DNA of 64,000 bases from Escherichia coli. GTDB lineage: Bacteria; Pseudomonadota; Gammaproteobacteria; Enterobacterales; Enterobacteriaceae. Shown here piece by piece: positions 45,801 to 51,800 of the stretch. Position 1 is the first letter of the stretch. Each line of letters begins with the position of its first letter. Location of the stretch: NCBI RefSeq assembly GCF_016026235.1, contig NZ_CP065613.1; one strand, written 5' to 3'. The position numbers were made by a program.

Positions 45801-48800
45801 ACGCTGTATCTGAACCAGCAGGCGGACTTCCGACGGATTCCGGTCCCCCTTTGAGGTGGTTTCCACCAGTGCCTGCACACCGAAGGTCAGGCGCAGACGA
45901 TCAATGTTTGCCGACGTGATGGTCCGGGTGATCGGCGTGTCGTATTTCACTTCCGTACCCAGCACCGCCTCGGAGCCGGAGGATTCAAATCCCTCCGGCG
46001 GTGTCTGCTCCTGCTCACCGGCCCGGAACACCACCGTGACGCCGGAGATGTTGGTATTCCCCTCAGTGTCCAGCACTGGCGTACTGTTCAGCAGCACGCT
46101 TTTTAATCCATCCACCGGACCGTCAACCGGCCCTTCGCTGATGGCATCGATCACACTCAGCAACTGCGTGGACTTCAGGTTGTCCTTCGCTTCGCGCGGA
46201 GTATGCCCCTTACTGCTGCCTTTACCCATTCCTCACGCTCCATAAACGACAAAACCGCCCGGAGGCGGTTTCACATAAAACGTTTTTCATCAGCGACCAA
46301 TCACCACAACCTGACCACCATCCCCTTCGTCTGCCGTGCGGATCTCCTGAGAGACCACCCGCGACCCCACGCGCATTTCACCGTACAGAACGGGCAGAAC
46401 ATTGCCCTGGGCAACCATGTTATCCAGTGAGGAGAAATAGGTGTTCTGTTTGCCGTTATCTGTACTTGCTGCCGTGGGCGTCCTGGCTTTCGGTGCCAGC
46501 ATCTGCGCCACTCCGCCCAGGATCATACTGGCCCCTGCCGCATACATGCCCGATACAGCCGCGGCACCCAGCCAGCCCACAGGGTTCCACCATGCCACCG
46601 CAATCAGCGCCACCCCCAGCACCACCTGAAACACACTGCCACTTTTAGCTCCCGCCAGACGCGGCACGATGTGGATCACGGCACCATTTGCCAGCGGCTC
46701 ATTAAGACGGGCAGACAATTCGGTTTCACCTGCATCACGCCCGGCAATGCGTACCTGGTACCAGCCGTCGCTCAGTTTCTGACGAAACGCCGGGATCTGC
46801 ATGGCCAGCGCCCGGATGGCTTCGGACCCCGTTTTCACTCGAAGGTCGATGCGGCGGCCAAATCGTTGTAAATCCCCGTAAAGGCAGATGCGTGCCATGC
46901 CCGGTGACGCCAGAGGGAGTGTGTGCGTCGCTGCCATTTGTCGGTGTACCTCTCTCGTTTGCTCAGTTGTTCAGGAATATGGTGCAGCAGCTCGCCGTCA
47001 CCACAGTAAATGGCGGCATGATTCGGCACCGATGAACCAAAACAGCACAGCAGCACATCGCCCGGCTGCGCCGCTGACAACGGCACCTGATACAGCCCTG
47101 TGGCCTCCAGATTATCCAGATAGAGATTCTGACCGTTACGCCACCAGTCATCCTCGCGATGAAAATCCGGCATCTCAATCCCCGCCAGATGGTAAGCATC
47201 CCGGAACAGCGTGTAACAGTCCGTCACCCCGTGCTCAAAGCGCCGCCCGGAAAGATGTGGCACACAGCGGAACTTGTGAATCGCCCCCCGGCAAACCAGC
47301 CACCACGGCAAATCACTCTGCACCTGCAGCCGCCGGTCGGTCTCACTCAGCCAGGGCAGACCACCGGGGTGGCTGTGGACCAGCGCCACAATCTCACCCT
47401 GCATCTCTGCCCGCAGCCAGTCCTCCGGCGACATCCGGAAATACTCCTCCGGCTCACCGGAGATATTCACGCAGGGAAAATATCTTTCCCCCTCCGGTGT
47501 TCTCACCACGAAGCCGCACGACTCCGCTGGCGCACATCGCCGGGCGTGCGCCAGAATCGCTGATTCTGTCTCTGTCATGGGATTCACTGCGAAAGTTTGT
47601 TAATGGAAAGGAAGCCGCCAAAGTTGCCGACGTTATTGCGAAACTTACAGCCGCTCAGGCATTTGCTGCATTTATCCTTCGTGATATCGGAGGTCGGCTG
47701 GTCATATTCATCCGCGACCGCCGGACCGTGATAACCGCACTCATCACCGCGATAGGTCCAGGTGCAGGTATTAGCCAGCATGATGCGCCCCGGAAAAACA
47801 GCGCCGTCCGTTTCCGTCGGCGTGGACAGTACAAAAGAGGCACTCACCGCGCTCAGTTCGCTGCACTGCTCGATGCGCCAGCGGCTGATCACCTCCTGCT
47901 CCGGATCGGCGTCACTGTTTCCGTTGACGAAGTTCACCGCATCCAGAAAACGGGCGTAAACCTTACGCCGGACCACCGTTCCTCCGACCAGACTCTGCAG
48001 GTCTTCCGCCATCCCGGTGACCATGCCGTGCAGGTTAGAAACCGTCAGTGTCGGACGGGCAGCACTGCCTTTGCCGTTCAGTTCAAATCCCGTCCCCTGA
48101 ATGGGATACGCCTGATACTGTCGCCTCTGCCAGGTGACCGGCTCACCTTTATCGTTCTGCTCATTACAGAAAAAATAACGTTCTCCACCGACCACTGTCA
48201 GATCGATTTCCCAGAGCACCACCTGGGCTGACTGAGTGAGGCGTGTCGTCTCATGATGTGTTTCCTGTGGAATATCCTGCATCAGAGACTCCTATGCCAC
48301 GACCTGTTCAAAATCTGCCGTTATGGTTACCCACAACGCCCCCACGCTTGCCGACCATTTACGACAAACCACCCTGATCGGCTTCCAGTCATAAGGTGGC
48401 GTCCACTGAAATGCGCGGACGCCACCGTGCCGTTCCAGAAAGGCTTTTAAAGATGGGTGTTCACCTTTACGAACACGTATCGTCACGCTGTAAGTCGACA
48501 ACTGGTTATTCAGTCCCGCCGCACGACGCTGTTCATAACCATCGCCCAGCTTCACTGTCACCACTTTCGGCTCTGATACCACATTCATATCCGGGCGCAC
48601 TTTCCAGTGAAACGTCTCCATTACCGGTATGCTCCACTTAACCGGCCACCATCACGGGCCTGCTGTTGCATAAAGTCCGCGGCCGCTTTTTTCCCGAGGT
48701 CATAAACCACCTTCAGGGCAGCCGGACCTATCTGCCCGTTCGTGCCATCGTTATTGATCTCAATGTTGTACTGCGGGGCAAACATCACCATGCCTGAACC

Positions 48801-51800
48801 ACCAGTATCCGCCACAACCCCAGCTTACCATCAGCACCGCGACGCAGTGGCAGAATGGCTTCAGGTCCCGCTTCCCCCATCACACCCGCGCCTTTTGCAA
48901 AAGCAAAAAACGTCGGACGGTTAACCACCGTGCCACTGTAGCGACTCAAATCAGCAGACTGGTAAACACCGCCATCAGCATTAGTCGTGAAGCCGAATAA
49001 AGAACCGACGCCCTTTACCGCCTGCATCATGGCCATCTGTGCCATAATTCTGGCCATATCTGACAACAGGGAAGAGGTAAAGGATTTAAAATTCAGCTTA
49101 CCGGTGGTACAGAATGTCGCCAGTGCATTACCGGCACTGCTGAATGCCACTGTAAACATCTGTTCTACCGTTCCCGCCGCATTATCCGCATCCGCCGTAA
49201 AATTCTGAAACGCCCGCATGGCACCGTTTTTCCAGTCGCCCTGCGCCACTTCCAGTTCCTGCCAGTAGCGTTTGTTTTCATTCAGTTGTCGCTTCAGGCT
49301 CCCCTTCAGCACCTCCTCAGCCCTCCGGTAGTCCTCCGTCCCGTAAGTGCCTTTCTGGCGACTGTCATTCTCAAGCTGTTGCAACTGTTGCCGGTATTCC
49401 TGCCGGATGCGCAACTGTGCCTGGTAGCGCTGCCGCTGCTTATCCCCCATACCTGCAGTGGCAATATCCAGATTGTGCTGCTCACGCAGTGCACGTTCTT
49501 TGTCTGCCAGCTGGCTGGTCAGCTGAACCGTTTTTTTTCTCAGGTCGTTAAGCGCTGTCTGTTTCTGCAGCTCCTGCTGTTTCACATCCAGCAGCGTCAG
49601 CGCCTGAATCAGCTCATTCTTACGGGCCAGCACACTCTTTTCATCTGCCGTCAGCTTTTTCCCGCCCAGGTCGCTGATGCGCTGCTGCAGGGCCAGAAGC
49701 TGTTTATGCGCTTCAGTCATCCTTTCAGTGGCAATGCCTGCTGACTGTCTGGCAGCAGCAATCTGCCCTTCCACCTGTGCCTGCTGCTGACTGTACTGCA
49801 GCAATAACCGGGTGGCCTCATCATTACGGGTTGCCCGTGTATTTTTCTTAATGGCTTTTTCGTAACGTTCATTTTCACGCTGTATCGCCGCATCCCTGAC
49901 AGCCTGGTCGGCGTACTGCATGGCATTAATACGCGCAATTTCCCGCTGATGTCGTGCAGCTTCCGTTTCATTCATCCGGTTCAGCGCGGCATTTTCAGCA
50001 TTCCGGCGTTTCTGTTGCTCCTGGTAATTCCGTTCTGCCTGCGCTTTTGCATCCTGCAAATCCTTCCGGCGTTTTTTCTCCTGAAGATCGTTAAGACGCT
50101 GCTGATCGTACTCCACCTGTGTGGAGGCGTTTGTCCACGGATATTTTTTCGCGCGCTGAATTTTTTCCTGTAACGCATCAATCTGCGCATCCAGCGAGTC
50201 TTCACGACCAATATTCATGGCCGCATCCCAGAACTGCTTCCACCAGTCAGACAAGGTTTGCAGCGTACTACCCAGCGCATTGAGATTATTATCAATATCA
50301 GATGTGCGTTTACCGGTTTCCTCTGCCAGCGCAGACATGGCGATCCGGGCCGCATCACTGGACCGCCCCTGCTCCCCAAGGACGCGTATCTGCTCAAGCT
50401 GAGTGGCAGTCAAAAAATGCAGCGCATTGTCCAGCGCCTTCGCGGCATTTACAGGATCATCCTTCAGCCGCTTAAACTGATTTATGGTATCGCTGACCGA
50501 CTGGCCAACCGATCGCTCCATCTGTGCGGCAGCTTTCGCCACCATACCAATATCGTTTCCATGAAATGCCCCACTGCCCACCACCTGTGCCAGCGCACCG
50601 GCTGCCGCATGTTGCGTGATACCATTCCCGGATATGGCCCGGCTGAGTTTCCACAACTGCCCGACAGTGACACCGGCATAATGTCCCGTCAGCGCCAGCT
50701 GACGGTTAAATTCCTCGCCCTCCTTCCGGCCGTCATGCCAGGCTTTACCCAGACCCAGGACCGCCGCGACAAGTCCGCCAATAACGCCGCCAGTCATCAT
50801 GCCTTTCGGCGACATCAGTGCGCCTGTCCATCCGGCACGGTTAGCCAGCGTTATCCCGGATCCCCTCAGCGCACCAAAATTGCCGCGCGCCATCTGACTG
50901 ATTAACACCCCCAGCTCCCGCCGGGCTGCCGCACTTTTCAGCCCCAGCGAATGTGTGGCTTTTCCTGCCCGCTCCATTTTGCGGATATACACTTCTGCAG
51001 CACTGCTTACCCCCAGCTGAGCCGCCCTGGCGCGAAGCAACTCAGAAGACGACAGATTCTGGCGGGTTGCCTGCTCTTTAAGCTGGCGGATAAACGCCGC
51101 TTTCTGCCGGGTGGCCTGTTCCTCTGCCTGCGTCAGGGCACGGGTTTTCGCCGTGATCTCCGAAATCAGCGCCAGATAATCCTGCTGACCAACCCCGCCA
51201 CTGTTTCTGGCCTGTCGGATCTGCTGCTGAATACGCTGTAATTCCTGAAGCCCCGCACCGGCCTGTTTCACACTGTCAATCTGGCGATAAAAGGCGGCAG
51301 CCGCTTTATCCTGCGCCTCCGCCAGTGCCCTGGCCTGCGCCTGTTCCTCGCGCATTTTCTGGCTCAGCGCCTCCATGCGCTGGCGGGTTTTCTCCACCTC
51401 GCGGGCCATGCGTTCATGAGCCTGTGCGTTCTTCTCCACCGTCTGCGCATGGACGGATGCGGCTGTTGCAGCCGAAGAAGCCGCCTGCGTTGTCTGCCGG
51501 GCGGCCTGAGTCTGACGCTCCATAAAACGCTGCATACGGGCAGAAGACCGTTCTGCATCGCTGGCTGCACCATTCAGAAGGTTTTTGATACGGGGAATTT
51601 CATTTTTAAACTCTGCCGCATCAATCCCCAAATCAATGACCAGGTTGGCTATCTGGTCCATAACGCACACCTCCGGAAATACCTTCCCCAAGATGCATCA
51701 GTTCTTCGTCCGTTCGCTCCGGTATCCCGTTCTCTTCCGGTAAAAGGCTGAAATCAGCCACCGCAGCATCGCTGCTGCCGGACACCATTCTCACGATCAA

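Follow-up and report, generated by a model that had tools for sequence, protein, structure and literature searches.

The 64,000-nucleotide stretch of Escherichia coli DNA analyzed here (contig NZ_CP065613.1 of assembly GCF_016026235.1; hereafter the window) contains a lambdoid prophage whose tape-measure gene H is frameshifted near its 3' end by one missing G. Very probably this base is missing from the consensus sequence of the assembly and not from the organism, so that the lesion would be an uncorrected assembly error and the real gene would encode a normal tape-measure protein of 1013 amino acids (aa). The frameshift as such is directly visible in the sequence, and chance is not at issue. 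Its attribution is suggested by the run length in related genomes, by four further one-base homopolymer deletions in the same block of head and tail genes, and by the intact, widely distributed proteins that reappear when these are repaired.

The Frameshifted Tape-Measure Gene

As it stands in the window, the tape-measure open reading frame (ORF) encodes 958 aa from an ATG at position 51661 and ends with GKLGLWRILVVQAW, directly followed by the stop codon TGA; a longer stretch of the same 3' end reads RRGADGKLGLWRILVVQAW before this stop. The predicted product consists of 948 native residues, to which 10 out-of-frame residues (LWRILVVQAW) are appended, and 65 native C-terminal residues are lost. 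The last 64–65 codons of the gene are found in the -1 frame, in an orphan ORF that begins with VADTGGSGMVMFAPQYNIEINNDG and ends with GAYR (complete reading: VADTGGSGMVMFAPQYNIEINNDGTNGQIGPAALKVVYDLGKKAAADFMQQQARDGGRLSGAYR), and whose stop codon overlaps the start of gene M in the motif TAATG. The frames part at a run of G that is located 195 nucleotides (nt) before the normal tape-measure stop and is one base short. The conserved C-terminal segment is interrupted in the window, and addition of one G to the coding-strand G4 run places it in a single frame and yields the 1013-aa protein. Exact look-ups of the truncated product, in its 958-aa and 968-aa versions, and of the 64-aa product of the orphan ORF returned no match; a 56-aa sub-fragment matched only partial proteins at contig ends, which are uninformative on frameshifts.

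A preliminary description of the window had recognized a lambda-type gene H whose C-terminus continues in another frame, and had proposed that one additional G would rejoin the two; these statements agree with our results. The 968 codons counted there and the end sequence are correct as well, but the count begins at a TTG at 51691 (ORF 48785..51691, minus strand), and the true start is likely the downstream ATG at 51661, which fits the 1013-aa homologues. The position of the run needs correction: plus-strand nucleotides 48809..48812, where it had been placed, read CCGC, and the CCCC corresponding to the coding-strand GGGG lies 9 nt further along, at 48818..48821.

The gene is identified by three Pfam matches, TMP_2 (residues 228–426, 159 bits), TMP_4 (613–690, 61 bits), and Tape_meas_lam_C (808–882, 87 bits), the first and the last of which exceed the gathering score, and by its neighbors in the tail module, the G/T chaperone genes on one side and M-L-K-I-J on the other. 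All three domains lie upstream of the break after residue 948 and are present in the truncated as well as in the intact form. The gene order of the entire element is lambda-like and comprises small terminase, large terminase, portal, the ClpP/capsid fusion, and, further along, Z, U, V, G, T, H, M, L, K, I, J, lom, and the tail fibre. The tape-measure protein of lambda, gpH, has the same three domains, is encoded in the same order V, G, T, H, M, L, K, I, J, and likewise has a C-terminal segment that is conserved in functional phages. It differs from the window protein in length (853 aa, versus 1013 aa once the window gene is repaired), and the window gene is split over two frames by the deficit of one base. 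According to a structural model of gpH that reaches residue 849, the C-terminal helix (residues 818–842) forms a three-helix coiled coil in the lumen of the tail tip and rests on the gpI tripod (PMC10721106). The 125 residues across the junction form one continuous frame in real phages, as in HannyBb (96% identity over all 125 aa; tblastn against 50,697 phage records).

Run Length in Related Genomes

With a 501-nt query around the run, matches covering 80% or more of the query were obtained in 1,781 E. coli genomes; the top matches all have a span of 502 nt. In an alignment with four homologues (95.6–99.6% identity) the only gap falls into the run, where the homologues read CTGGGGGTT and the window reads CTGGGGTT. 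Five bases are present at this site in all 12 related loci that were fetched, and none of the complete RefSeq genomes of E. coli is a 100% match to the window. Comparison with homologous prophage H genes had been named as a check in the preliminary description, and each homologue examined carries G5 and a single 1013-aa frame.

An exact search with 61 nt recovered the G4 allele from one of 5,426 complete E. coli genomes, that of strain CFSAN029787. A 27-nt exact pattern of the same allele had no match in metagenome contigs or GTDB representative genomes, but the G5 control pattern matched only one metagenome contig, so that these scans are almost without a denominator. The copy in CFSAN029787 is located at the very start of its record (NZ_CP011416.1, 1..15849), where six genes (portal, G, tape measure, M, L, and K) carry frameshift annotations. 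The same genome also contains an intact twin of this copy, and relative to it a 6,067-nt stretch of the region shows no mismatch and 17 one-base deletions, 15 of which fall into runs of at least three identical bases; the H and G runs that are short in the window are among those affected. Poor quality at a contig end, and not biology, is the probable explanation for this stretch, and the shortening of the same two runs indicates that they recurrently lose a base in assemblies. A comparable case is the independent assembly JAALAC010000002.1, which has the same C6-to-C5 deletion in the capsid gene as the window together with one more homopolymer deletion (positions 3057 and 3840), and in which no capsid gene is called at this site.

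Comparison With a Sister Assembly

The J protein of the window (1157 aa) has exact matches only in a QPR-series GenBank entry and in STL97184.1 from the NCTC assembly GCA_900449985.1. Contig UGFA01000002.1 of the latter encodes the identical J protein and carries the same prophage at the same aspS-yecD-dinI-ipaH insertion site. Over 23,474 aligned nt (window 32756..56225) the two sequences differ at five places, namely by one substitution and four one-base gaps. The four gaps are all on the side of the window. Each shortens a homopolymer and breaks a phage gene, with one in H, one in G, and two in the gene for the capsid fusion protein; the NCTC counterparts are intact and encode 1013, 128, and 686 aa, respectively. 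A fifth deletion of this kind, in the small terminase gene, lies outside the NCTC locus and was recognized by comparison with FDAARGOS_943. Positions and run lengths are listed in Table 1. The two capsid deletions divide the fusion gene into three ORFs (54838..55539, 55419..56072, and 56069..56932).

With one base added to each of the five runs, all four genes regain an intact ORF. The repaired G protein and the repaired small terminase (164 aa) are exact matches to proteins found on at least 1000 contigs each, and the 686-aa capsid fusion, repaired at both sites, is identical to a protein present on 172 contigs. Repaired H differs from its closest intact copy, the NCTC protein (P0107), only by A832V, which results from the one substitution between the two assemblies in 23.5 kb. 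Beyond these lesions, the genes thus look undamaged.

Table 1. Features of the tape-measure locus and differences between the prophage genes of the window and those of related assemblies.
Feature	Coordinates	Strand	Basis or comparison
Truncated tape-measure ORF	48785..51661	-	ORF reading and Pfam matches
One-base deficit in H (CCCC; run of 5 in homologues, C5 to C4)	48818..48821		12 of 12 related loci; NCTC assembly
Orphan 3' tape-measure ORF	48621..48815	-	Phage homologues read straight through (HannyBb)
Gene M, intact, minor tail protein, 109 aa, directly downstream	48292..48621	-	Exact protein P0016; start overlaps the normal tape-measure stop
Substitution private to the window (A; G in relatives), A832V in the tape-measure protein	49167		Alignment of relatives (G in 8 of 8)
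Deletion in G, tail chaperone, C5 to C4, ~70 nt upstream of the G-T slip region	52060..52063		NCTC assembly
Deletion in the ClpP-like prohead protease/major capsid fusion gene, C6 to C5	55559..55563		NCTC assembly; also in JAALAC010000002.1
Deletion in the same ClpP/capsid fusion gene, T5 to T4	56197..56200		NCTC assembly
Deletion in the small terminase gene (DUF1441/Nu1-like), C6 to C5	61038..61042		FDAARGOS_943; outside the NCTC locus

Programmed Frameshifting and Phase Variation

In principle the arrangement in two frames could be functional, either through a -1 ribosomal slip on CUG GGG U or through a run length that varies within the population, and some full-length tape-measure protein would then still be produced. 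Read from the sequence, re-pairing of the Gly-tRNA on G GGG with a -1 slip would recreate the GKLGVVADTGG... of the intact homologues and hence the wild-type protein, and PMC5009743 discusses low-level translational correction of indels. The junction CUG GGG UUG, however, contains no canonical X XXY YYZ heptamer and permits nothing beyond the slip of a single tRNA on G GGG. Moreover, no homologue conserves the arrangement, as the 12 related loci and phages such as HannyBb all have the region in one frame. Contingency tracts usually comprise seven or more bases; the run of 4–5 bases is far shorter, and its length is an invariant five in the relatives. Nor does any programmed mechanism explain why G, the capsid gene (twice), and the small terminase gene carry the same type of lesion. 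Programmed frameshifting and phase variation were both rejected on the ground that relatives do not conserve the arrangement, and we regard a functional two-frame gene as extremely improbable.

The known model for a frame change in a tail gene of this module is the -1 frameshift that yields G and G-T in lambda. The H site resembles it in affecting the same module but differs in having neither a conserved two-frame arrangement nor a canonical slippery heptamer. The real G-T slip region of the window is expected at ~51973..51993 (minus strand), where G ends with ACG CCG GAA AAG TCC TGA, a stretch over which the T frame stays open in -1; the heptamer differs from the G GGA AAG of lambda.

Origin of the Deletions

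Errors in long-read assemblies are mainly homopolymer deletions, which fragment genes (PMC12007338). The lesions of the window resemble such artefacts in several respects. They are exclusively one-base deletions in runs of 4–6 identical bases, indels far outnumber substitutions (four deletions and one substitution relative to the assembly of the same strain, plus the fifth deletion relative to FDAARGOS_943), and the repaired ORFs are identical to known proteins in the case of G, the capsid fusion, and the small terminase, and one residue away from this in the case of H. The difference concerns their distribution, as they are confined to a 13-kb block of the prophage, from H to the small terminase gene, instead of being spread over the window.

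This clustering speaks against an assembly error. No one-base homopolymer indel was found relative to E. coli CX21 in window positions 1..21000 and 20675..36996 (~36 kb of chromosome), although errors of the assembly should occur at similar density throughout; differences in length from CX21 are restricted there to two 2-base-pair (bp) indels, an insertion of the insertion sequence IS1, and an 81-nt deletion. These clean stretches contain 114 runs of at least four G or C, compared with 69 in the block from H to the terminase. Errors limited to the prophage require the additional assumption of a poorly polished repeat. Three other considerations point in the same direction. Firstly, the private non-synonymous substitution at 49167 shows that the window is not simply the NCTC sequence, and it may represent real divergence. 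Secondly, the prophages of Shigella and enteroinvasive E. coli accumulate real pseudogenes. Thirdly, homopolymers are real mutational hot spots.

An assembly error would nevertheless account for the pattern as follows. Five runs in the head-and-tail block, each one base short, would be the signature of long-read errors left uncorrected by short-read polishing. If the block is present in more than one near-identical copy per genome, as we infer, short reads would have no unique placement in it, and the remaining lesions would be clustered there; both the sequencing platform and the poor polishing of the repeat are presumed in this scheme. The closest relatives contain three copies of the tape-measure segment per genome, and the M protein of the window has two accession numbers within one accession series, which would fit a repeat that short reads cannot polish.

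The principal rival is a real and very recent frameshift, one step in the decay of a lambdoid prophage linked to ipaH, in a lineage that is enteroinvasive E. coli or Shigella-like. We consider this unlikely, but it has several points in its favor: the sequence as given does contain the frameshift, the host belongs to a type of lineage, with IS1 and ipaH, that is known for the accumulation of pseudogenes, and all five deletions are in dispensable prophage genes with none in the ~36 kb of chromosome, as relaxed selection predicts. Furthermore, the substitution at 49167 would mark the window as a distinct lineage or stock, and the helix of lambda gpH that sits in the tip complex (residues 818–842; PMC10721106) belongs to the C-terminal part of the protein.

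The spectrum of changes argues in the other direction. Every deletion that separates the window from its relatives in these genes, four in the 23.5 kb shared with the NCTC assembly and the fifth outside this comparison, affects a homopolymer, and only one substitution accompanies them. Substitutions exceed indels about tenfold in the spontaneous mutation of wild-type E. coli, and a spectrum dominated by deletions is the reverse of this, which disfavors real decay. One hit is enough to inactivate a prophage; five independent hits without other damage, at a distance of one substitution from the common ancestor, are not expected, and neither is the identity of the repaired proteins to common intact ones. 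The G4 allele is absent from the 12 related loci and from the GTDB and metagenome scans (the latter two with the limited denominator noted above), and the only other occurrence in complete genomes is in the error-ridden stretch of CFSAN029787. Prophage decay typically proceeds by insertions of IS elements, large deletions, and scattered substitutions. Pseudogenized ipaH-associated lambdoid prophages are similar to the window in that ipaH abuts the tail-fibre end, IS1 is nearby, and morphogenesis genes are interrupted, but the lesions of the window are five one-base homopolymer deletions only, and the four in H, G, and the capsid gene are absent from the NCTC sister.

If all five deletions were nevertheless real, they would amount to a rapid disabling of the particle genes by multiple hits in one lineage of enteroinvasive E. 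coli, with the ipaH effector locked into the chromosome and with -1 slippage that might yield traces of full-length protein, a scenario that we regard as quite improbable. A genome-wide hypermutator was rejected as their source, because at five hits per 13 kb the whole genome would contain thousands of frameshifts, yet the ~36 kb of chromosome are clean; either selection on the prophage is relaxed, then, or the assembly has a problem restricted to this region. Assembly error, which the preliminary description had already named as the alternative, is now the more probable cause. The feature is most probably an artefact; it would otherwise be an ordinary recent pseudogene.

Chromosomal Surroundings and Host

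The chromosomal part of the window (yebS ... zwf ... ruvABC, aspS, yecD, dinI) is 98–99.4% identical to E. coli. Directly beyond the tail-fibre genes of the prophage, and adjoining dinI, yecD, and aspS, lies a full-length ipaH gene (38108..39859, plus strand), whose 583-aa product is an exact match to a protein named IpaHd, an E3 ubiquitin ligase effector of the type III secretion system. The gene identifies the host strain as enteroinvasive E. coli or Shigella-like. Compared with CX21, the IS1 copy (7999..8767, 769 nt, with its InsB ORF at 8249..8752) is an insertion in the interval from pphA to yebY. Also relative to CX21, copD and yebY are fused into one ORF of 381 aa (8952..10097, minus strand) with the Pfam domains CopD and DUF2511; the copD stop codon and the spacer were removed by the 81-nt deletion, which is flanked by 12-nt direct repeats. 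A tRNA scan of the window found none.

Implications for the Prophage and Its Host

Under either reading, the biological weight of the frameshift is little. If it were real, it would be a further pseudogene in a prophage under decay, and such cases are well known. By analogy to the gpH of lambda, the 65 lost residues would include the tail-tip helix, so that tail assembly would probably be abolished and the ipaH-carrying element would no longer be able to form particles.

If the missing bases are artefacts of the assembly, as we consider very probable, the prophage would be miscalled as defective, with apparent pseudogenes for the tape-measure protein, G, the capsid, and the small terminase. 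At least two further public assemblies have lost a base in runs that are shortened here, which makes these runs possible quality flags. The organism itself would then probably carry an intact, possibly inducible phage linked to ipaH.

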